Positions 13,257 through 62,117 of a DNA stretch of 64,000 bases are shown in pieces. Position numbers and translations under genes: made by a program. The notes under the pieces are model-generated. The model did not search any database. It was not told the origin of the DNA and was given only the letters and a program-made list of their open reading frames with translations. The DNA is from a virus (Duplodnaviria; Caudoviricetes), in IMG/VR virus record IMGVR_UViG_3300014204_000169, positions 1-64,000 of that record; one strand, 5' to 3'. Each line of letters opens with the position of its first letter. Positions within the stretch are counted from its first letter, which is position 1.

Positions 13257-16200
13257 ATGACTTGGACTCCAGATACAACACCAGCATCTAGGACATTCCC
13301 ACTATCTGCAAGTGATGAACAATTTCCACTTTTACAGGGTGAAGCTAGTGTTGTACCTACACCTACAGGAGCTGAAGCATTAAAATTTTATGTTGATTGG
13401 AATAACAATTTAATGTTTGACCACGCATATTCAGATATTTCTGATTATGTACAAAGTGTGTCTTGGTCAAGAGGTAGATCTGGACCATCTCCTCAATATG
13501 ATGTTGCTGGAACAATGCAACTTAACTTATTAAATAATACTGCTATTTTTTCATCTTTTAATACAGCAAGTCCTATTTATGGATTAATACTTCCAAATTT
13601 AAGAGTAAAAATTACTTCTCAAATTGGCAGCGGTTCAATAGAAATAGTAGGTTTATTTAAACTTGATTCTATTATTCCAGAAACAGGCTCTTGTAAAAAT
13701 GAAGGAACAGCAACACTTGCTGCATCTGGAGTTATTTCAAGATTTACTAAAGGTAAAGTAAATATAGCTTTACTTAATAATGCTCCTACAGGAAATCATG
13801 TTGAATTAATCCTAGATAACTATGGTGTCCATCCTTCCGAAAGAATCGTTGACACCGGATTATCTACTATTAGCAAATGGTGGTTTTCTAAAGATAGTTC
13901 ATACCTTGAAGAACTTCATGCAATTCAAGATGCTGAATGTGGTCGTTTTAGAGGAGATCGAAAAGGAAATCATGTTTTTGATGATCGAGCACATTCATAT
14001 AATCCACCAAATGATGTTGCTCAAGTAATATATGGTACTAGTGGGCTTGGTTTATGGGATGTTCAGCAATTTGATCCTATTGAAAATATTTATAATTATG
14101 CTACTGGAAAAGTAAAAGTATTTAATACATCAGAAGATATGATCCTTACTATAATTTCTGATGTTGTTGGTAATTCAGGTGGAACTCCTCCTATTGTTCC
14201 TGGCAATGGTACTTTAACAGTTAGATTTGAATGTCCTTGTCCAGGCAGTCCTTCAGAAGTTAAATCAGTAGATTCTTGGAGTATTGTAGATCTTGAAGGA
14301 AACACTAATGCTGCTGGTACTGGAACGGATATTACTACAGATTTATCTTATGTAAAAACTGAATATGGTCAAAAATTAGAAGTAGTAATAACAAATGTAA
14401 ATGCATTACCTGCACATCTTATTATGTTAAGAGCCCATGGTGTTGCAATTGTTGAAGGTGATGTTACAGAAATTATATCTCAAGATACAACTAGTATTAC
14501 CAAATATGGGAAAAGAGAATTTCCAAATATTAATGAGTGGGACACTAATCTTGAAGATGCTCAAGCTAGATTAGATTATTTAATTGCAATTAATAAAGAC
14601 CCAAAACCAAGAATACAGTTTACTGTTAAAGGTGTTAATGAACTCCATCTAGTAGAAATGCAAAAGCGTGAACTAGGAGATAGGATACATGTTAATGCAT
14701 CTCTTGCGGCTACTGGATTAGCCATTGATGCTGATTTTATTGTTGATCATATACAACACGCAAAAGACATAAATTCTTTACATACAATGCAAATTACATG
14801 TACTTTTGCTCCAACAATACAACTTGCAAAGAGTGGGACGGCTTACACGCCGAAAGTAATTCCAACGGCTACGAAAGATTTCGTCCTTCCCGGAGTGCCT
14901 ATTTCGTTGAGCGTTGAGGCTTCTACCTATAAATTTGTAGTACAGTGGGTAGATCCAGCAACGGGCAATCTGACCCTATTCGATAGTTGCGTGCAATTCG
15001 CCTCTGATGCCGCATTCACGACCGATGTAACTACTCGTTATGGATTAGGATATGTAAATAATTACACGTTCTCTTTTCCGCTTAAGACTCGCTATTTCCG
15101 GGTGGCGATGTACAACGAGTCTGGACTAGCCTCAAATGCCACTACAAAGGCCGCTATCGTTGCGGCTGGCGGAAGCGCTGATTATGGCTGGGGTCCATTT
15201 TGCGCCGTATCTGCGGCTGTCACAACTGCAGGACTGCTTACAACAGACGTTGCCCCAAACACACTTGTTCCTGCAAATATGAACATTTCCCTGCGCGGGT
15301 GGACGCTCACTTGCGTATTTTCTGCCCTCGACGCCGATACCGTTCAATGGACATCGGGAACTTTCACGGCAGCGGATGGTACGCCATATGCCATAAGCGC
15401 TGGAAATACCGGCAATATGGCAGCGGTAACGCATATCTACCTAGACATAAATATATCTACCACGGCATTGCAAGTGACCGCTAATGCAGCGTTATCATTG
15501 GGGATTGGTCGCGTACAGGTTGGGGTGGCTATCAATCAAACATCCCGCGCAACATTCCAAATATTTGGAGGTGTTGGCGGAATTAATCTGCTTGTTGACA
15601 ATTTGGTCTCCAATGCGGCCAGCGTGAACGAATTCATATCAAATACGGCCCAAATTGCCAATCTTATTGTGACCAATGCCAAAATAGCGGGACTATCTGT
15701 TGATAAGCTGACCGCAGGGGCGATCACTTCGAAAATCATAGAACTTGTTCTTGATCCAGGTAATGGTGACGCTGCAATCCGATTAGGAAAGACGGATTTT
15801 GGAGACGATACGCATTCAGGATTCATTCTTGGGGCCGACGATAGCGATAGCGATAAGCCAAAGTTTGAAATCGGTTCAAGCGCTACAAAGAAGCTTTCTT
15901 ATGACGGCACTGACCTTGCGCTTATCGGTGGAACTGTTACCGGCGGGACGCTCCAGACGGAAGCAACTGCATCCAGGGGTTTTAAAATAACATCGACTGG
16001 CTTCAAGGGATACGATGGGGCTGGCGCTGAAACGCTGTCTTATACAGCATTAACTGGAGCAATCGCGCTCACGGGCTCAATAACCGCAGGAGTAGGATCA
16101 ACTATTGCAGCGACGTATTTATCGGGCCAGATCATTGATAGTCAGATTGCACCGGGAGCCGTTCTTGGTAGCTCTGGAGATCCTGCGGCACCAGATTTTA

Positions 16201-16505
16201 CAGCAGGAACCCTTACTCTTGATAATAACTGGCACGATTTAGATCTTAGCGCAATCGTTCCTGCTGGGCGAAATTTTGTTCTTCTTCGCGTCTTTCTTTC
16301 CGCCGTATCGACGACGACTAAATCGGTGTTCTTTCGAAAAAATGGCAACTCTAATGCCGTAAATGTCAGCAGTATATCGGCCTATGCCGGACAAGTTGCC
16401 TATGCGGATGTGATCGTTCCAATGGACGCCAATCGCGTGATTGAATACGAGGGCGTGGCAAGTCCATATGCTCTTGAAATAACCATTGGTGGATGGTTCA
16501 CGTAG
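13257..16505 (+). CDS. Tail tip / baseplate hub-central fibre protein with GC-rich C-terminal half
   Basis: 1082 aa directly after TMP; N-terminal SDYVQSVSWSRGR..GT..L.L.N hub-like motif; Gly/Thr/Ala-rich fibre-like C-terminus. Confidence 0.65.
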   Translation: MTWTPDTTPASRTFPLSASDEQFPLLQGEASVVPTPTGAEALKFYVDWNNNLMFDHAYSDISDYVQSVSWSRGRSGPSPQYDVAGTMQLNLLNNTAIFSSFNTASPIYGLILPNLRVKITSQIGSGSIEIVGLFKLDSIIPETGSCKNEGTATLAASGVISRFTKGKVNIALLNNAPTGNHVELILDNYGVHPSERIVDTGLSTISKWWFSKDSSYLEELHAIQDAECGRFRGDRKGNHVFDDRAHSYNPPNDVAQVIYGTSGLGLWDVQQFDPIENIYNYATGKVKVFNTSEDMILTIISDVVGNSGGTPPIVPGNGTLTVRFECPCPGSPSEVKSVDSWSIVDLEGNTNAAGTGTDITTDLSYVKTEYGQKLEVVITNVNALPAHLIMLRAHGVAIVEGDVTEIISQDTTSITKYGKREFPNINEWDTNLEDAQARLDYLIAINKDPKPRIQFTVKGVNELHLVEMQKRELGDRIHVNASLAATGLAIDADFIVDHIQHAKDINSLHTMQITCTFAPTIQLAKSGTAYTPKVIPTATKDFVLPGVPISLSVEASTYKFVVQWVDPATGNLTLFDSCVQFASDAAFTTDVTTRYGLGYVNNYTFSFPLKTRYFRVAMYNESGLASNATTKAAIVAAGGSADYGWGPFCAVSAAVTTAGLLTTDVAPNTLVPANMNISLRGWTLTCVFSALDADTVQWTSGTFTAADGTPYAISAGNTGNMAAVTHIYLDINISTTALQVTANAALSLGIGRVQVGVAINQTSRATFQIFGGVGGINLLVDNLVSNAASVNEFISNTAQIANLIVTNAKIAGLSVDKLTAGAITSKIIELVLDPGNGDAAIRLGKTDFGDDTHSGFILGADDSDSDKPKFEIGSSATKKLSYDGTDLALIGGTVTGGTLQTEATASRGFKITSTGFKGYDGAGAETLSYTALTGAIALTGSITAGVGSTIAATYLSGQIIDSQIAPGAVLGSSGDPAAPDFTAGTLTLDNNWHDLDLSAIVPAGRNFVLLRVFLSAVSTTTKSVFFRKNGNSNAVNVSSISAYAGQVAYADVIVPMDANRVIEYEGVASPYALEITIGGWFT

Positions 16506-16512
16506 AGGAATT

Positions 16513-16809
16513 ATGAATCTTATAGCTAAAGCACAAGACGTGACCATTGGATATATCGAAATTGACAAGTGGACACTAGATCCTATTACGGAACGCCTCG
16601 TCATTTGGTTTCATCTAAATGACCATCCGATGCTTCATTATCAATTTGGTCAAGATATTACGGCATCTCTTTGGGTTCTACTCGATGTTGACGCCGGAGT
16701 CGATGAAGACAAAGCAAAAGCTTTGTTAATGGCAGAAAAACCTGCATTTAATTCGGTCGCGCGGGTTGCTTGGAATTTACCGTTTCTTATTGTTGAGCAG
16801 GAAAATTGA
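16513..16809 (+). CDS. Hypothetical protein, possible tail fibre accessory
   Basis: AGAGGA RBS before ATG 16513; follows the tail tip gene. Confidence 0.45.
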   Translation: MNLIAKAQDVTIGYIEIDKWTLDPITERLVIWFHLNDHPMLHYQFGQDITASLWVLLDVDAGVDEDKAKALLMAEKPAFNSVARVAWNLPFLIVEQEN

Positions 16810-16828
16810 CAGAAAATAGGAGAGCACT

Positions 16829-17083
16829 ATGGTTGAACGCAGAAATCACTGGTTGCAGACACTCTCAATAGTAATCCCGCTAATCATCACGATGATCGGG
16901 CTGGCGATAGCATCGGAACACAGAATCACTATCGTTGAATCCGGTCTGGATGAGATGAAGACTCAAACAGCCATACTTGCCAGCAATCAAAGAATGGTCA
17001 TGGAAACACTGGCAAAAACCACGGCAATCATGGACATGATGTGCAAGAGACACGAAATAGAGGACACGAAAGGAAAACAATGA
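16829..17083 (+). CDS. Holin-like small membrane protein (1 TM + coiled coil)
   Basis: AGGAGAG RBS; hydrophobic LSIVIPLIITMIGLAIA followed by heptad-like segment. Confidence 0.5.
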   Translation: MVERRNHWLQTLSIVIPLIITMIGLAIASEHRITIVESGLDEMKTQTAILASNQRMVMETLAKTTAIMDMMCKRHEIEDTKGKQ

Positions 17084-17256
17084 TGCTATCAAAAATATTA
17101 TTAATCTCCTCTCTTCTATTCGGCATGGGTGGATGGTTAGCAACATTGCCGACTTGGAGCGCTGCATTGACTCCGATATCCATGGGCGGGTTATTTATGA
17201 TTATTGGCTCCATAGTTGCTGCATGGCTTGGGCAATCTCCAATTAAAGGAAAGTAG
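17080..17256 (+). CDS. Holin-like two-TM membrane protein
   Basis: ATGA overlap with the upstream gene; two hydrophobic helices and a basic C-terminus (SPIKGK). Confidence 0.5.
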   Translation: MMLSKILLISSLLFGMGGWLATLPTWSAALTPISMGGLFMIIGSIVAAWLGQSPIKGK

Positions 17257-17261
17257 GATTT

Positions 17262-19178
17262 ATGGCTACTCGCTGGACAACGCTGACATATACCACTGCA
17301 AGCATTGCCGGGGGCGCAAGCCTTGTGGTTAATAGCACAATTGATGCCGTGAATATTGACATTGGCCTGATTGCCGTGCTGCCAAGCATAAATTCCGGCA
17401 CAACCACGTTCGGGATCTACAAAAAAGATACCTGTCTTGATTCGGACATGGTTTACCAGAACACAAAGGCAGGAAACCTCTATGACCCCATCCAGCGAGT
17501 AGGAGTAACCGAGCAAACAAGAAACGAGTTCCTTGTTGCTAAATATGACGACCTGGATGACTCACTGGAACTACATCAGAAGATCACAAACACGAGCGCG
17601 GATGCAAAGACCTATGACGTAACGATTGTCTATGTCAAGCATTCAGGAGCTGCTGAAACGAAATCTTTGACGGATTTCGGAGCAGACGCAACTGGAACGG
17701 TATCGGCTATTGCGGCATTGACGGCGGCAGAGGCAGCCGGGAAACCGCTGATTATTCCTTATGGGACATTTTTGATTGACGCTAACATTACGGTGTCAAT
17801 TTCCTTAATCTACGAAGGCGGTCAATTTACCTCCTCCAACGCCTCAACCCTAACCCTCACCGACCCTCAGAGTGGGAGTGATGGGCAGAGGTTTGCGGGG
17901 AATCTTGTAGTGGCTGGGCTCACAAAATCAAACCCAGTTTATTTTGGCGCAGTAGGTAATGGCACAACGGACGATAGCGATAAATTGATTTCCGCATTTT
18001 CTTCCGTGGCCACCAATCATGGCTTAGTGGAATTCGGGATAGGAATATTTCGGATTACCAAAACCATCCCCACAACTAGTATTGTTCTTCGGGGTATTAA
18101 CAGAGATAAGAGTCTGATCTTTTTGGATTATGATGGCATTGGACTAAGCGTAACAACAGATTCATTATCTCATTTCGAAATGCATGATATCGGCATCGTT
18201 GGCGAAACAGCATTTACGTGGTCGTTGACTACAGCAACAAGCCAGATAGCAGTGCTGATATCTAAGAGCCACAAATACATAATTGATAATTGCCAGTTTT
18301 ATCATCTCGATAATGCGATCAAAGTATATGGCGGTGCGTATTATGGGGTTATCGAAAAAAACCTCTTCCGGACAAATAAGACAAGCATGTACCTGTTAGC
18401 GGATACTCCCACAGCAGATGCCCCTAATGAAGCCAATATAATTTTCAATCAATTCGATATTTGGCCGGTATCCGTCGGAGGTCCAGGATCGACAATTGGG
18501 CTAAAGGTTGAAGGCGTAGCAGCCGCGGCATCCTCACATATCAAGGTTATTGGAAATGGTTTTGAAAATGTTGCTAATGGCATTAAGCTAATTAATGCAT
18601 GGGATGGGCAGTATTTAGATAACAGGTTTGAAGATGTAACAACATATATGGATGGCGACTCGGGAAGTGGGCGGAATTTCGTCCAGAGCAGCATGTATTT
18701 AGATCCATTAAAGTTTGTATTTGCAATTGGAGCCCCAAATACAAATACTTTAGTTATTCCTAACAGCAATGGAATCTATGACTGGAAAGGAACTGTCAAT
18801 GGGGAAACAATCCCTCCTGTCGTAACTGCGTGGACTCCGGTTGACGCGAGCGGCGCATCGCTTGTATTTACAGCTGCAGTGGGAACTTATTTAAAGACAG
18901 GCAAACAAGTGACTGCGTTTTTTTCGGTGGAGTACCCATCTACAGCTGATGCATCTCAAGCAAAAATAGGGGGATTGCCTTTTGCAGCAGTTGCCGGAGC
19001 GACCAATCCGTCTGGGGGGAATCTAGGCATTAACACCTCGGCCTCTCTTGTGTGTCCAATTGTCGTCGGGGGTGAGTCGTATTTTATAATGTCAGTAATA
19101 TCCACCAGCAGTGGCGCAACAAACGCAAATTTAAGTACTGCTTATTTGCGCGGATTTGTGACATACTTTACAAATTAA
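17262..19178 (+). CDS. Tailspike / pectate-lyase-like beta-helix depolymerase
   Basis: YFGAVGNGTTDDSDKL and DFGADATG cap motifs; I..N.F beta-helix repeats; C-terminal WTP...GTY.K.GKQV..F....IGGLPF. Confidence 0.75.
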   Translation: MATRWTTLTYTTASIAGGASLVVNSTIDAVNIDIGLIAVLPSINSGTTTFGIYKKDTCLDSDMVYQNTKAGNLYDPIQRVGVTEQTRNEFLVAKYDDLDDSLELHQKITNTSADAKTYDVTIVYVKHSGAAETKSLTDFGADATGTVSAIAALTAAEAAGKPLIIPYGTFLIDANITVSISLIYEGGQFTSSNASTLTLTDPQSGSDGQRFAGNLVVAGLTKSNPVYFGAVGNGTTDDSDKLISAFSSVATNHGLVEFGIGIFRITKTIPTTSIVLRGINRDKSLIFLDYDGIGLSVTTDSLSHFEMHDIGIVGETAFTWSLTTATSQIAVLISKSHKYIIDNCQFYHLDNAIKVYGGAYYGVIEKNLFRTNKTSMYLLADTPTADAPNEANIIFNQFDIWPVSVGGPGSTIGLKVEGVAAAASSHIKVIGNGFENVANGIKLINAWDGQYLDNRFEDVTTYMDGDSGSGRNFVQSSMYLDPLKFVFAIGAPNTNTLVIPNSNGIYDWKGTVNGETIPPVVTAWTPVDASGASLVFTAAVGTYLKTGKQVTAFFSVEYPSTADASQAKIGGLPFAAVAGATNPSGGNLGINTSASLVCPIVVGGESYFIMSVISTSSGATNANLSTAYLRGFVTYFTN

Positions 19179-19191
19179 AAGAGAGGATTTT

Positions 19192-19323
19192 ATGAAAAGA
19201 ATTTTGATGACTTCAGTTTTATGTTTGTTCTACTGCGGATGTTCACTTCAGGCCCAAGAACGTTTTGCTTTCAGCGGTGCCGGATACTATGACGGTGCGC
19301 AGGTTAAAGGTGTACTCAATTAA
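19192..19323 (+). CDS. 43-aa signal-peptide-bearing ORF, probably truncated
   Basis: GAGAGG RBS; MKRILMTSVLCLFYCGCSLQAQERF...; stops where GC content drops. Confidence 0.35.
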   Translation: MKRILMTSVLCLFYCGCSLQAQERFAFSGAGYYDGAQVKGVLN

Positions 19324-19362
19324 TTATTTTATAGTAAAATAAAGTATTCAAGGAGAATAATC

Positions 19363-19740
19363 ATGTTTTTTCTGTTTAGTTGGTTTTCAAAAATAGGTAA
19401 AACTTTTGTAAAGCTATTCAAATCAAAAGCTGCTCAAAATGTATTAAGTATTATTATTGAGCAAATTCTACCAGAAGCTAAACCCATTGTAGCTTCTATT
19501 CAAAATATTATTAATCACCCATCTCAAGCAACGATTGCAGATATTATTAATCTATATACTAATTTTAAACAAGAGATTGGTTATATAGAAGATAATGCTC
19601 AAGCAAAAGGAAATGCTGTATTAAATTTAGCGGTTATGTTACTAAAAGATAAACTTGGCCCTAAATATAATACACCATTGCTTGAAGCAGCTATTACTAC
19701 TGCTTTAGCTTCTTTACGTGCTGAGTTAGGTTTGAAGTAG
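19363..19740 (+). CDS. Hypothetical protein with amphipathic N-terminus (last late gene)
   Basis: AAGGAG RBS; ends just before the terminator. Confidence 0.55.
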   Translation: MFFLFSWFSKIGKTFVKLFKSKAAQNVLSIIIEQILPEAKPIVASIQNIINHPSQATIADIINLYTNFKQEIGYIEDNAQAKGNAVLNLAVMLLKDKLGPKYNTPLLEAAITTALASLRAELGLK

Positions 19741-19764
19741 CTTTTATTTACATTCTAAGCAAAT

Positions 19765-19804
19765 AAAAAGAGCACACGGAACTTTGTGTGCTCTTTTCTT
19801 TTTG
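19765..19804. terminator. Bidirectional rho-independent terminator
   Basis: AAAAAGAGCACAC-ggaacttt-GTGTGCTCTTTTCTTTT, with T tracts on both strands, between convergent operons. Confidence 0.85.
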
Positions 19805-19856
19805 AAAGCTCTTAATCGTTTACAGCAGAGTTATTCAGGCAGTTATTTGATGCCGA

Positions 19857-20252
19857 CTAACACTTTTTGTCACCATGTCGATGTGGCCTAGTAGTATTGT
19901 ATTCTAATTTTAAATAAAGTGCATCTATTAGCACTTGTTCAAGTTTATGTTTCCCGATAAAATCACTAATGCGAATTAATTCATCAGCAAGCTCAACACA
20001 GAAACCTTCTGGCTTATCTGGATGTGCTGAGTTTATATTGTAATAGATTTTATCTAGTGGATGTCCTCCACGATATTCTTCCAAAGCTTCAGAAAGTTCT
20101 GAATGCATTAAAGCAATTTTTTCTGGGATATTATGTTTTTTACCATCCCACCAACCATGAGATTTTGCTGTTTTATAAGATTGTTTTACTAACTCTAAAA
20201 TTGACAAATCATTTCTATCAGAACTTCTTAATTTTAATAATTCTTTCTTCAT
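19857..20252 (-). CDS. MazG-like nucleotide pyrophosphohydrolase
   Basis: KIALMHSELSEALEEYR...ELADELIRISD...K..YN..RP.RHG. Confidence 0.75.
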   Translation of the reverse strand: MKKELLKLRSSDRNDLSILELVKQSYKTAKSHGWWDGKKHNIPEKIALMHSELSEALEEYRGGHPLDKIYYNINSAHPDKPEGFCVELADELIRISDFIGKHKLEQVLIDALYLKLEYNTTRPHRHGDKKC

Positions 20253-20464
20253 TTTATCCCCATAATAGGTGTGTAATTTAATTTATTTAACTCTTCAGAT
20301 ATTTTTTGAGCACTTCCTGCACAAGATATGAGCCCATCAGATAAACTGACAAGTGTCTTGGAGTCATCAATTGGATTGTACCCAATCATCCAAATTTCAG
20401 AGCAATTTTCTTTTTTAACTCTGAGTCCTCCTTTTACATCAAATAATTCCCATATAATTTTCAT
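20249..20464 (-). CDS. Hypothetical protein
   Basis: Start reassigned to ATG 20464 after AAAGGA RBS (MKIIWELF). Confidence 0.5.
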   Translation of the reverse strand: MKIIWELFDVKGGLRVKKENCSEIWMIGYNPIDDSKTLVSLSDGLISCAGSAQKISEELNKLNYTPIMGIK

Positions 20465-20480
20465 CTCTATTCCTTTTATA

Positions 20481-20658
20481 TTGCAAGCTAACAGCCCTAC
20501 AACACCATAAAGGTAAGATCTAAATAATCTGTTGCTTGGCTCTTCTGCATATAGATGCAGATTACAATTCACTGAGTTGAATAGAGACAAGTTTCAAGGC
20601 TCCTTGTCAACAGTGAAACATTTAGATATTCAAAGAACTGATGGCTGTTAGCTTGCAA
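20481..20658. ncRNA. Candidate structured ncRNA of unknown class
   Basis: Perfect 16-bp terminal inverted repeat (20481-96 / 20643-58) enclosing nested 8-, 7-, 7- and 6-bp stems. Confidence 0.55.
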
Positions 20659-20668
20659 ACTCATAAAA

Positions 20669-21469
20669 TCATTTTACATATTTACTAAACTGTTCTGTTG
20701 ACCAAGTTCTGTATTTTAATTCAGTATCTTCTATTCTTTTTAGTAATCCTTGAAATTTATTAAGATCTTTCCCATAAATATGATAGCTGTCTGCTTGGTG
20801 ACAATATCTCCCTACTCTAACAGGTTCATTTCTCATTCTACCTATTTCATTTGCAATAAACATTTGTAAATGAACAAAAGCATACATATTCATAAATGCT
20901 GCTTGATAGGCATCGTTAGAACGCATCAAAACATTCATATCAAGTTCCCACTTAGGAGAACCTTCTTTATTAACTTGAGTCATTCTGCACCATATTCTTT
21001 GTAAGCATGGTGGATCAGAAGAATATAAATCATATTCAGGAACCCAAGTAATTGCTTGTGCTCTTCTTGAGTATGGAACTCTAGCAAGAATTTTACACAT
21101 TTCATGGATTTGATCTTTTGGAACAAATCTAGCTGGGTTATATCTGAATAGTCTTGAATGATAAGTATAGTAAAGTCTTCCAGTATTCTTAGATTCCAGA
21201 AAAGAAACTATCTCATTATCCTTACTGCCATGAAGAACTTCATTAACATAGTTTACTAAATTTTGAGGTAGCCCAGGAAAGCAGCGATGTACTCTTGGCT
21301 CATCAAGAGGATTAGTAACCTCAATCATCATAGTGCAATCCTTGCTTGGGGGATCTTCAGGTTTGTCATATTCAGTTTTAATATCACAACCGTGCTTGTG
21401 TAATATAATTAATGAATTCTCCCAAGCTTCTGGAATAGTTTTTCCTCTTACTGATAATACTGGGATCAT
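20669..21469 (-). CDS. thyA: Thymidylate synthase (archaeal-like ThyA fold)
   Basis: PPCLQ catalytic Cys, MRSND...N, HQADSYHIY; start at MIPVL after AAAGGTGG. Confidence 0.8.
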   Translation of the reverse strand: MIPVLSVRGKTIPEAWENSLIILHKHGCDIKTEYDKPEDPPSKDCTMMIEVTNPLDEPRVHRCFPGLPQNLVNYVNEVLHGSKDNEIVSFLESKNTGRLYYTYHSRLFRYNPARFVPKDQIHEMCKILARVPYSRRAQAITWVPEYDLYSSDPPCLQRIWCRMTQVNKEGSPKWELDMNVLMRSNDAYQAAFMNMYAFVHLQMFIANEIGRMRNEPVRVGRYCHQADSYHIYGKDLNKFQGLLKRIEDTELKYRTWSTEQFSKYVK

Positions 21470-21729
21470 AAAGAATCCACCTTTCCTAACATTCTTAAAA
21501 TACAAAGATTTACTTCATCTTGTAAAACTCTAGCGCTTTCAATATTTTTAAATGTTATTACTAAATCTTGTTCTTTTGGAATAAAAGTACCACTATTTTC
21601 TTCTTTTGGTACAGCAGCACCAATGGGGTAAGATTTTTCACTGTGTTCAAAAATAATACTTTCATCATTATTTTCAATTTCTTTTCCTACAGTTATTAAA
21701 TATTTTCCATCCCCTAAAATTACGTGCAT
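21466..21729 (-). CDS. Hypothetical protein
   Basis: Co-oriented, 4-nt overlap with thyA. Confidence 0.5.
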   Translation of the reverse strand: MHVILGDGKYLITVGKEIENNDESIIFEHSEKSYPIGAAVPKEENSGTFIPKEQDLVITFKNIESARVLQDEVNLCILRMLGKVDSL

Positions 21730-21858
21730 TTCTTCACCTTTAATGATTTAATCTTCTTTAGTAAAAACATCACTTTTTGCTTTAGTAATTTATTCTGCTT
21801 TTTCAAAAACTCAATTTTCTTTTCCAACATTGTTATTTTAAAATGTTGATTTTGAAAT

Positions 21859-22089
21859 TCATTCATTATATTTTACCGGATAGTAACAATCAGGCCAAGA
21901 AATAGATTCATTTGGTATGATATCATTTAAAATTGCTGACCCAATAAAATAAGTATGATCTACACAAGCTTTGATTGCTTTTCTTTTTGTTGTAAAAACC
22001 CCTTGAAATTCCCAAGCAACTACTTTTGATTTTTTATCAAAACCTTTATTTTGCCCAACAATCCATAATTTAATTTTCTTTGACATCAC
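21859..22089 (-). CDS. Hypothetical protein
   Basis: WEFQGVF...AIKAC; co-oriented. Confidence 0.5.
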   Translation of the reverse strand: MMSKKIKLWIVGQNKGFDKKSKVVAWEFQGVFTTKRKAIKACVDHTYFIGSAILNDIIPNESISWPDCYYPVKYNE

Positions 22090-22681
22090 TAATTCCTTTT
22101 TTAATTGTTACATTAAATACTTTATCTGCACATTCAGCTAATTCTGTACTGTGCGTAACCACAATAACTTGCAATGAAAGTTTTTTACTAATTTCAGATA
22201 ACATAGCACTAGCTAAATTCATTCTTACAGGATCTAACCCAGGAAAAGGTTCATCTAATAATAAAACATTATTAGTTCTTGGATTTTGTAATACCCATGA
22301 AACAACTCTTAATGCAAATGCAGCTATATGCACTGTTCCTCCACCAGAAGAATCCATTGGCTCATCTATCTCTTGCCCCTTACGGGAAAATAACAAATCA
22401 CACTCACTCTTATTCCTACGCTGAATAAACCTTGCCATGAATTCATAAGGGTCATCATATACAGAAGATAAAGCCATGCTTACTAAATCAGATATTTTGA
22501 ATTCAAGGGACTGTTGTGTGCGTAGACCTACAAGCTTTACGCACTCTAAGGCTTTTTCTAAATTATGTGATTTACTAACTAGTTTAGCATTTTCCAGAGT
22601 GACGGATTCAAGGAGATTATTAAGAGTCAGTTTTTGGCCTTTCCGTTGCTCTAACCTGTTTCGTAATTCTTGAATAGTCAT
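22070..22681 (-). CDS. sbcC: SbcC/Rad50 (gp46-like) ATPase, C-terminal half
   Basis: Signature SGGG, Walker B LLLDEP, D-loop GLD, H-loop VVTHS; no Walker A. Confidence 0.8.
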   Translation of the reverse strand: MTIQELRNRLEQRKGQKLTLNNLLESVTLENAKLVSKSHNLEKALECVKLVGLRTQQSLEFKISDLVSMALSSVYDDPYEFMARFIQRRNKSECDLLFSRKGQEIDEPMDSSGGGTVHIAAFALRVVSWVLQNPRTNNVLLLDEPFPGLDPVRMNLASAMLSEISKKLSLQVIVVTHSTELAECADKVFNVTIKKGISDVKEN

Positions 22682-41357: not shown

Positions 41358-41399
41358 AAAATCATTTTCCTCTTTAATTTAGTAAGTCTAAAGTTTTTC

Positions 41400-41443
41400 A
41401 GTCTCAGGGGTTGTTCATCGGCCCGAACAATTTCCCTGAGACT
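41400..41443 (-). promoter_or_regulatory. 5'-leader stem-loop
   Basis: AGTCTCAGGG/CCCTGAGACT (10 bp) plus TTGTTC/GAACAA (6 bp). Confidence 0.6.
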
Positions 41444-41484
41444 TTATGCATTGGTGTTTTTGCACTCATGATCAAACACATAAT

Positions 41485-41514
41485 ACTATATCAGAATGGT
41501 TTAATAATTTTCAA
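41485..41514 (-). promoter_or_regulatory. Sigma70-like promoter
   Basis: TTGAAA-18-TATAGT on minus strand. Confidence 0.5.
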
Positions 41515-41531
41515 GGTAATTTAGTATATTT

Positions 41532-52790: not shown

Positions 52791-52842
52791 TTACATTTTC
52801 CTTTCCGTTATTAAACCCTCAATCTCTGAGAGCTTAAATAAT

Positions 52843-52945
52843 GGGCCAGAATCTTAAACTACATTCGCCTTTAGTAGTGTTCTGGCCCTTGTTATTTTGG
52901 TAGCTGGCTTTAGTAAATCCAGCGCATATTGTTTACCTCCCTAGT
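52843..52945 (-). promoter_or_regulatory. Leader with uORF MRWIY* (52910-52927) and downstream hairpin (52843-52888)
   Basis: GGGAGG RBS + ATG CGC TGG ATT TAC TAA; GGGCCAGAA/TTCTGGCCC 9-bp stem. Confidence 0.5.
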
Positions 52946-52971
52946 TTTTATGTTAGGTTTATTCTCGCTAC

Positions 52972-53001
52972 ATTATATATTAAATCTTAAAGTATTTTCA
53001 A
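52972..53001 (-). promoter_or_regulatory. Sigma70-like promoter
   Basis: TTGAAA-18-TATAAT. Confidence 0.55.
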
Positions 53002-53011
53002 AGAATATTTA

Positions 53012-53347: not shown

Positions 53348-53544
53348 TTGATTATTCTCCTAATGATTTACTAAACTTTTTGTGTTCATTAATAGTTGTT
53401 TGGGTACTATGCAAAAATGATTCTGATAGGTTAGGTTTCTTGCTAAGTTCTTCAAGTTTTTCTATTCTTGATTTCTTAATTTGATATTGTTTCTTAATAC
53501 TATAGCTAGTCCATTTGCTTGAATTCCCCATTATTACCCCTTTC

Positions 53545-60881: not shown

Positions 60882-61483
60882 TAAACCAAAATTTACTAAT
60901 AATTTCATAACAATTACATTAATAGGCTCATAAACAAACAAGAACAATCAACACTAAAGCTTATAAGACTATTAATAGGATAGTCAGAGTATTTAATAGG
61001 TAGAGTAGAGGTATTAAAGAGTATAACTACTCTACCTGTATATGTAATGTATGGTTTATGTGTGTTTTGCTCCTTATATTGTGTGTTATTTTATTAATTT
61101 TACGCTTTGAGCCATGCTCATTACGTTGTTTTTATTAATAATACGTTGTTTTGCGTTATCCGACCAACGCTATTCTTAGTAAACTATTCTTACTAAAAAT
61201 AGATTACTAAATAAAAAGGTTAAAAATTACTAAACTATTTGTAAACCGTGGTAAAAACAGTTCTATCCGGTTTATCCTGATAAATGTTAGTAAAAAATAC
61301 TTCAATTCAAATCATACGATTGGCAAATTGTTCCCCAATACCATAACGCAATAGGCTCTTAATTGATTTATACTCGCTTCTGAGCATTCGATTATTTATG
61401 CCTACTTCATCATATGTGCCATCGGCGTTTTGTCTTGTGATAATTGCCTTCATTGTTTTCCCCTCCCAAAATTACTAAACTAA

Positions 61484-61714: not shown

Positions 61715-62117
61715 TTCTTGACCTCCAAAATTACTAAACTATATGCAGTATTCCCAATTCCAGCATTTTGGAAAAGGATCGTAGGGACATGAAAAACAAG
61801 GCACAATTAAAGCCAGAAGAGCAATAGACTTTATCTTCTGATACTGTAAGGCCATAAATGGTGCAATCGTTCTTATATCTAGCCGCAAACATGGTTTATC
61901 TCCTTTGATTTAGTTTATTAAAAAAGCACTCTATAGAATGCACAAGCTTTATAGCGTATGCACTCTAACAATGCTTTTCAGTTCATATAACCTCGCTTTT
62001 TAGTTTACTAAACAATCAAGTCTATACAGGTTAAAGTCGCATAATATCACCTCCAATTAGTTTAATAAATTAATTCAACATATATGCGCTCAAATTACTA
62101 AGCGCATAAATGCGGAA

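Follow-up and report, generated by a model that had tools for sequence, protein, structure and literature searches.

The 178-nt non-coding element at 20481-20658, whose ends form a perfect 16-bp inverted repeat, is an orphan intergenic module closed by a stem, of a type already seen in bacteria and phages, and the analogies with retrons and with 6S RNA that were first drawn for it fail their defining tests. Our favoured reading, to which we would give a probability of roughly 0.4, is that it may act in cis as a domain of the leftward mRNA that carries a thymidylate-synthase-like gene, the small gene orf71 and a MazG-type gene, and that it would serve there as an mRNA clamp or processing stem. 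What we see directly is geometry, of course, and it is from this geometry that we infer a role in processing or coupling.

Where in the phage does the element lie?

The phage comes from a landfill metagenome assembly and is represented by a complete virus record of 74,118 bp with direct terminal repeats; the window, by which we mean the whole stretch of DNA analysed here, is its first 64 kb. Rightward structural genes extend to ~19.7 kb, and a leftward block of replication and nucleotide-metabolism genes runs from ~63 kb down to 19,857, where a terminator-like hairpin closes the operon and provides the nearest terminator downstream of the element. Identical short contigs of the phage, at low coverage, are also present in a groundwater metagenome run from a different study (compared over 19000-22500 of the window), which tells us that its range is wider than the landfill sample. 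The features that matter for what follows are these:

19766-19797, both strands: bidirectional terminator-like hairpin, a 12-bp perfect inverted repeat that splits the rightward and leftward blocks
19857-20252, minus strand: MazG-type nucleotide pyrophosphatase, last gene of the leftward operon (PHROG 3301, E = 4e-33)
20249-20464, minus strand: orf71, an orphan ORF of 71 aa, with its AAGGA ribosome-binding site at 20475-20471
20474-20480, minus strand: 3' side of a predicted extension of the closing helix, UAUAAAA, weak A/U, adjoining and partly overlapping AAGGA (MFE of the 301-nt and 204-nt contexts)
20481-20496, no strand assigned: left arm, TTGCAAGCTAACAGCC, the 3' arm of the closing helix P1 on the transcribed minus strand, with a pairing probability of 0.98 on both strands
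20497-20642, minus strand: 146-nt interior with competing short helices (P2 and alternative inner layouts)
20643-20658, no strand assigned: right arm, GGCTGTTAGCTTGCAA, the 5' arm of P1 on the minus strand, beginning 10 nt past the upstream stop codon
20662-20668, minus strand: 5' side of the predicted extension, UUUUAUG, directly past the thymidylate-synthase-like stop codon (MFE)
20669-21469, minus strand: thymidylate-synthase-like gene, 266 aa, intact (Pfam PF00303; PHROGs thymidylate synthase, PHROG 160)
20682-20691, minus strand: AGTTTAGTAA, a copy of an over-represented motif, in the last codons of the thymidylate-synthase-like gene and 23 nt upstream of the element

Read along the minus strand, the order is therefore the thymidylate-synthase-like gene, a 204-nt spacer, orf71 and the MazG-type pyrophosphatase. 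The first of these ends in a TGA at 20671-20669, and the C-terminus of its protein, whose best relatives reach 55% identity at most, coincides with the end of its closest homologue's. The ATG of orf71 lies at 20464-20462 with AAGGA six bases upstream, so that, as the earlier note had pointed out, the element stops just short of the next ribosome-binding site, 5 nt from that AAGGA. A public gene call lengthens orf71 to 107 aa, from a GTG at 20572 that lies within the element. We reject the element as coding sequence: this GTG has no ribosome-binding site and the extension, in its codon usage, is only at the 4th percentile among the real coding windows of the phage, and the element is probably non-coding. 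There is also a 31-codon ORF (20569-20664, minus strand) that has its ATG four bases past the thymidylate-synthase-like stop, lacks a ribosome-binding site and crosses the closing helices on their 5' side; were it translated through termination-reinitiation, the ribosomes would unfold the element.

The over-represented motif deserves a word of its own. In the window we count 213 copies of the heptamer TTAGTAA where 23.5 +/- 4.3 are expected; they lie on both strands and also inside genes. A longer form, (T)AGTTTAGTAA, precedes many of the minus-strand ribosome-binding sites of the early region by 4-25 nt (for example at 61472-61481, 61731-61740 and 53368-53377, all on the minus strand). The motif is absent from 13751-19638, the stretch that holds the GC-richer tail module (14830-19323).

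How real are the repeat and its fold?

The outer repeat is exactly as first described, 20481-96 being complementary to 20643-58 at 16 of 16 positions, 100%, and the arms lying 146 nt apart. The 74,118-bp genome has no other perfect inverted repeat of at least 16 bp (with a spacer of up to 400), nor do these arms recur elsewhere in it. Thirty shuffled genomes contained none of at least 16 bp (on average they had 4.5 of at least 12 bp and 0.2 of at least 14 bp), and extrapolation of these counts gives about 0.02-0.03 repeats of 16 bp per genome; the outer repeat exceeds chance. Its placement is more telling still. A few hundred arm positions would fit the spacer geometry, each with a probability of ~1e-9 as we estimate it from base composition, and a random match with its arms within 5-10 nt of both ends of the spacer comes by the same estimate to roughly 1e-6 or less. 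A random origin for a repeat placed at the very ends is thus very improbable, and for this reason we treat the element as a discrete unit.

What the arms say about their own history is less simple. The stem is Watson-Crick at all 16 of its positions, without a single G-U pair, and in this it looks more like a young inverted duplication of DNA than like an evolved RNA helix. Moreover, the outer six bases of the arms read TTGCAA, which is itself palindromic, so that the ends allow two readings: a repeat of 16 bp, or one of 10 bp flanked by a 6-bp direct duplication. No direct repeat was found outside the 16-bp arms, but TTGCAA may itself be a 6-bp duplication, which makes the original statement that there is no target-site duplication not strictly decidable.

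As for the fold, the element ranks first among 1,479 windows of 190 nt covering the whole genome when folding energy is corrected for GC and both strands are considered. The 191-nt region, treated as RNA and set against dinucleotide shuffles, reaches -60.6 kcal/mol on the minus strand (z = -4.3) and -57.5 on the plus strand (z = -5.1), and the element folded as DNA gives z = -6.4 against shuffles. Terminal G-U pairs make the minus-strand RNA 3-5 kcal/mol the more stable of the two; the plus strand is nevertheless as unusual against its shuffles as the minus strand, so the folding energies do not settle which strand matters. In longer contexts (301 nt and 204 nt) the MFE structure adds 6-7 A/U pairs, 20474-80 with 20662-68, beyond a 3-nt bulge at 20659-61, which brings the stem to ~23 bp; one of these pairs, a G-U on the minus strand, becomes a mismatch on the plus strand, and the extension is missing from the centroid structure of the 301-nt context. 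The AAGGA and the ATG of orf71 remain unpaired in the fold. Since the predicted structure begins right after the TGA and ends against the AAGGA, the 204-nt spacer and the fold appear to be coextensive.

The other intergenic gaps of the phage hold local hairpins only, and the idea that we are looking at a recurring device of this phage was rejected on that account. Some of these hairpins are worth recording in their own right. The 225-nt intergenic stretch at 61893-62117 folds on the minus strand to -64.6 kcal/mol (z -4.7), against -44.2 on the plus strand, into two long local hairpins, the second of which is followed by a U-run; judging from these predicted folds, they are likely to be real RNA structures or early-region terminators. 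Strong local GC-rich hairpins are likewise predicted on the minus strand in the gaps at 41358-41531 and 52791-53011 (z -4.1 and -3.2; for example GUCUCAGGG...CCCUGAGAC), and these look like terminators between transcription units.

Inside the closing helix, every pairing listed in the earlier note can be found: ATCTAAAT at 20518-25 with 20620-27 (P2, which can be extended to 11 nt at 91%), AATCTG at 20525-31 with 20558-64, TCTGCAT at 20544-50 with 20555-61, TTCACTG at 20568-74 with 20611-17, and GACAAG at 20586-91 with 20603-08. These inverted repeats share overlapping CUG/CAG cores and give rise to two mutually exclusive topologies, one of which combines P2 with P3 (20532-37/20608-13) and the hairpin 20544-61, and the other, which contains arm 2 as first proposed, P2 with 20568-74/20611-17 and 20586-91/20603-08. 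The MFE interior has CUGUUG/CAACAG plus the UCUGCAU hairpin, and the two-arm layout of the original proposal, when enforced, is only ~3 kcal/mol worse on either strand. Perfect inverted repeats of at least 7 nt number 5 in the interior against 0.83 in dinucleotide shuffles (P = 0.002), and at 6 nt or more there are eight against 3.0 (P = 0.008). Folded alone, by comparison, the interior gives z = -1.57 on the minus strand and -1.02 on the plus strand (12 and 25 of 200 shuffles, respectively, fold as well), and when the element is aligned globally with its reverse complement the score is 91.5, no better than the 83 +/- 14 obtained with the interior shuffled. The interior, in short, is rich in alternative pairings and thermodynamically unexceptional. 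A conformational switch, as first suggested, is conceivable, since two near-isoenergetic folds do compete; as there are no homologues, the competing folds cannot be arbitrated between. The interior also contains an 18-bp palindrome, TCTGCAT-ATAG-ATGCAGA, which recurs nowhere in the phage genome, and a recurring operator palindrome was rejected on the strength of that single occurrence.

Is it an RNA or a gene that we already know?

The short answer is no. Rfam has no match at the gathering score anywhere in the window, and at E <= 10 the region 20300-20850 yields just five chance-level matches, none of them to a 6S or intron family; ARAGORN sees neither a tRNA nor a tmRNA.

The retron comparison was an understandable one, because in an msr-msd the a1/a2 inverted repeats close some ~150-250 nt of structured RNA, much as the 16-bp repeat here closes 146 nt, although flanking repeats of the a1/a2 kind are common to many elements that are not retrons. 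In a retron the reverse transcriptase gene adjoins the ncRNA, normally just downstream. The earlier note had found no reverse transcriptase in the window, and we can extend this to the complete 74,118-bp phage, from which PF00078 is absent at E <= 1 (with positive controls). The element's neighbours are the thymidylate-synthase-like gene, orf71 and the MazG-type gene, it differs further from a retron in having no long msd hairpin, and the analogy is left without its defining partner.

The likeness to 6S RNA fares no better. Both are ~180 nt long with paired 5' and 3' ends, and the layout of 6S RNA is a closing stem, a large central bubble and a terminal stem. That molecule is a rod with a central bubble, whereas the predicted MFE and centroid folds of the element are multibranched; nor, unlike 6S RNA, is the element provided with its own promoter or terminator, for neither a sigma-70-like promoter nor an intrinsic terminator was detected in it or beside it.

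A group I intron of the T4 td type was rejected too: the gene is complete, no intron family matches, and the element comes only after the stop codon. The arms do not match the candidate iterons at 45.64-45.70 kb, and kinship with these was rejected on that ground. As a separate observation, two other IMG/VR phages have a split thymidylate-synthase-like gene (L079:1501-3513 and L082:868-2868), with matches to residues ~1-190 and ~155-257 that share a strand and are separated by 1.1-1.2 kb; this arrangement suggests an intron or some other insertion in the gene, as is known for T4 td.

Does the element have relatives?

We have looked for relatives of the element and of its neighbours in a good many places. 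The GenBank phages contain no blastn match to the element, peptide patterns drawn from the upstream protein found nothing in IMG/VR, and orf71 has neither a relative among 5.8 billion proteins nor an informative Atlas neighbour. Four viral loci with a related MazG-type gene show neither synteny nor the element, 25 viral loci with a thymidylate-synthase-like gene have no element, orf71 or MazG-type gene, and when a covariance model was built from the single sequence, its one match in the phage genome was the element, while five related phage records and these 29 loci gave none.

The ends were followed separately. The 16-mer has nine matches in IMG/VR, all unpaired and inside unrelated genes, which by our estimate is no more than chance. 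A scan for both ends together (10 + 10 bases, separated by 130-160) returned no viral matches, 15 from genomes and 23 from metagenomes, the genome and metagenome matches being GC-rich and unrelated inside; by our computation, chance alone should give about 17 such matches in the 596-Gb genome collection, against the 15 observed. In the source landfill run, only the phage's own contig covers the element at a likeness of at least 80% among the pieces listed, which were the longest ones, and neither that run nor the groundwater run, whose contigs leave the element uncovered, shows a joint, an inversion or a second copy. A look for RNA runs that contain the phage gave none. No second copy was found, then, in the phage, in IMG/VR, in the GTDB representative genomes or in the JGI metagenomes, and the absence of one from the phage, the listed pieces of the source run and the public collections argues against a mobile repeat.

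The scan did bring to light something else. Eight JGI metagenome contigs from a few related samples (L035, L041, L044, L046, L049, L053, L055 and L056) have in common an element of 166-180 nt, bounded by GCTAACAGCC...GGCTGTTAGC, with a GC content of ~62% inside contigs of 42-54% GC; it is unrelated to the phage element beyond the 10-mers used for the search.

What might it do, and what else could it be?

It is the position of the element in the operon that guides our thinking. Since it lacks both a promoter and a terminator, transcription should carry it along with its neighbours down to the terminator at 19766-97. In that transcript the 16-bp helix (~23 bp with the A/U extension and its 3-nt bulge) would tie the bases just after the stop codon to those just before the next ribosome-binding site, the 146-nt interior would be looped out, and the stop codon would come to lie beside the start signal of orf71. 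A long perfect double-stranded stem of this sort would be an RNase III-type substrate, and as such it would most likely set the processing, the stability or the translational coupling of orf71 and the MazG-type gene; the continuous helix of about two turns, lying inside a transcript, that one looks for in such a stem is present in the predicted fold, whether it is counted as 16 bp or as ~23 with the bulge. Ribosomes that terminate 10 nt upstream would melt the outermost pairs of the stem, which makes some translational coupling plausible, and the competing inner helices may be modulators of the stem or may be incidental.

There are precedents for most parts of this picture. The RNase III sites of T7 (R0.3, R1.1 and others) lie between the cistrons of polycistronic phage mRNAs, and the processing stems of rRNA operons arise where sequences on either side of a large looped-out domain pair over a long distance; the geometry of the element, with its helix of about two turns between cistrons, is like both. 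In T7 the sites, several to a genome, are local ~60-nt hairpins interrupted by an internal loop, whereas ours is a single site enclosing 146 nt. Another useful comparison is with the Correia elements, which are confined to Neisseria and are present there in hundreds of copies, with 26-bp repeats, a TA duplication and a conserved core; the phage element differs from them in being a singleton with other ends and no detectable family. The resemblance lies elsewhere, for Correia elements (CREE/NEMIS) are described as non-coding intergenic units of ~100-160 bp with inverted-repeat ends that form a long hairpin, as ours is predicted to do (PMC2649163). By that account, when they are co-transcribed, RNase III binds them and cleaves or protects, and the expression of the adjacent gene is altered (PMC2649163).

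In favour of a cis-acting mRNA stem, we count that the repeat is real and unique in the genome and that the spacer is its best-folding window; that the predicted fold fills the spacer exactly while leaving the ribosome-binding site and the ATG unpaired; and that RNA of the minus strand is predicted to fold better by the 3-5 kcal/mol mentioned above. Against it we count that there is no homologue, and hence that neither covariation nor conservation is seen; that a G-U-free stem looks like a young DNA duplication; that a processing stem has no need of a 146-nt interior; and that the plus strand is equally unusual and the device single in the phage.

The alternative that survives best, and one we regard as possible if doubtful, is a MITE-like or foldback insertion of DNA, non-autonomous, with terminal repeats of 10-16 bp, which would have settled in the one spot between the two genes that tolerates it, the RNA fold being a by-product. 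The working definition of a MITE asks for repeats of at least 10-15 bp, a duplication of 2-10 bp and a length of 50-800 bp (PMC11602168), and the perfect terminal repeats, the 178 bp, the lack of coding capacity, the intergenic site and the stable fold of our element are all like those of bacterial and viral MITEs (PMC11602168). The palindromic TTGCAA permits the reading as a 6-bp duplication with a 10-bp repeat, the core helices are all Watson-Crick and fold equally on both strands, and excision of the element on paper leaves an ordinary junction, with stop codon, ~25 nt and ribosome-binding site, preceded by a motif that is common before genes. What weighs against an insertion includes its solitude: there is a single copy in the phage, the pieces listed from the source run show no other at 80% likeness or more, the 16-mer matches in IMG/VR are unpaired, and the paired-end matches are GC-rich, unrelated and, in the genomes, about as many as chance would give. 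The interior, at 35% GC, is close to the 32.5% of the phage and the flanks; no transposase or recombinase was detected in the phage; and MITEs, although they are present in viral genomes, are found in only 0.01% of viral sequences (PMC11602168). A MITE should have several copies or a parent insertion sequence, and the collections searched contain neither for this element; an unambiguous target-site duplication is missing as well. The earlier judgement that this is not an obvious MITE was argued from an absent duplication, a point that the palindrome makes ambiguous. We should add that insertion and mRNA stem are compatible in origin and effect, and not mutually exclusive.

The proposal with which this element was introduced, that of a novel phage ncRNA acting in trans, we consider improbable. 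Cleavage of the closing helix would on this account free a branched RNA of ~150-180 nt to act as a decoy or regulator, and it is true that a helix closing the 5' and 3' ends is typical of stable RNAs, that the interior has its surplus of short inverted repeats and two alternative folds within 3 kcal/mol, and that a non-coding gap stands out in an otherwise compact operon. Yet Rfam offers no match at E <= 10, the interior alone folds like its shuffles, the element is without its own promoter or terminator, related phage records and loci hold no homologue, and a reverse transcriptase, the partner protein looked for, was not detected in the phage, the neighbours being nucleotide-metabolism genes. 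What endures of the proposal is a discrete, non-coding, self-complementary element; nothing found here speaks for action in trans, the element having neither its own promoter or terminator, nor a homologue, nor an exceptional interior. The more elaborate version, in which a double-strand-specific nuclease would excise a phage RNA of ~180 nt that would then serve either as a decoy in trans or as a two-state CUG/CAG switch gating orf71 and the MazG-type gene, is in our view a long shot.

We also attach little credence to the idea that the element is a neutral product, in which a single event, such as template switching while a pre-existing spacer was being replicated, would have created a repeat that has no function. 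The perfect, G-U-free repeat does look young, it is a singleton without conservation, and over very many windows some 16-bp repeats are to be expected, at ~0.02-0.03 per genome of this size; but both arms lie in one 204-nt spacer, 5-10 nt from its ends, at the odds of ~1e-6 or less given above, and neither the unusual length of the spacer nor the excess of inverted repeats in its interior would be explained. Finally, invertible promoters have inverted repeats flanking a segment directly upstream of a gene. A double-stranded DNA site, be it a switch of this invertible kind or a pair of binding sites for a regulator or a replication protein, would suit the 16-bp repeats around ~150 bp upstream of a gene and the 18-bp palindrome, but it is the least likely of all and very unlikely in absolute terms, since the phage has no tyrosine or serine recombinase (PF00589, PF00239), since neither strand of the element bears a promoter-like site, and since strand-switch joints are missing from the contigs of two runs (a weak point, as contigs drop rare variants). 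Neither the arms nor the palindrome recur in the genome, and the arms are unlike the candidate iterons mentioned above.

Why does it matter?

At present the main value of this work is that of a checked negative for the retron and 6S readings, obtained on a single, unconserved instance. Should the element turn out to be a MITE-like insertion, it might point to the host of the phage. If it is instead the processing or coupling device that we favour, it would be another long-range RNA helix with which a phage tunes its nucleotide-metabolism genes, and it would furnish a compact test case for what a looped-out insert does between a stop codon and the next ribosome-binding site.
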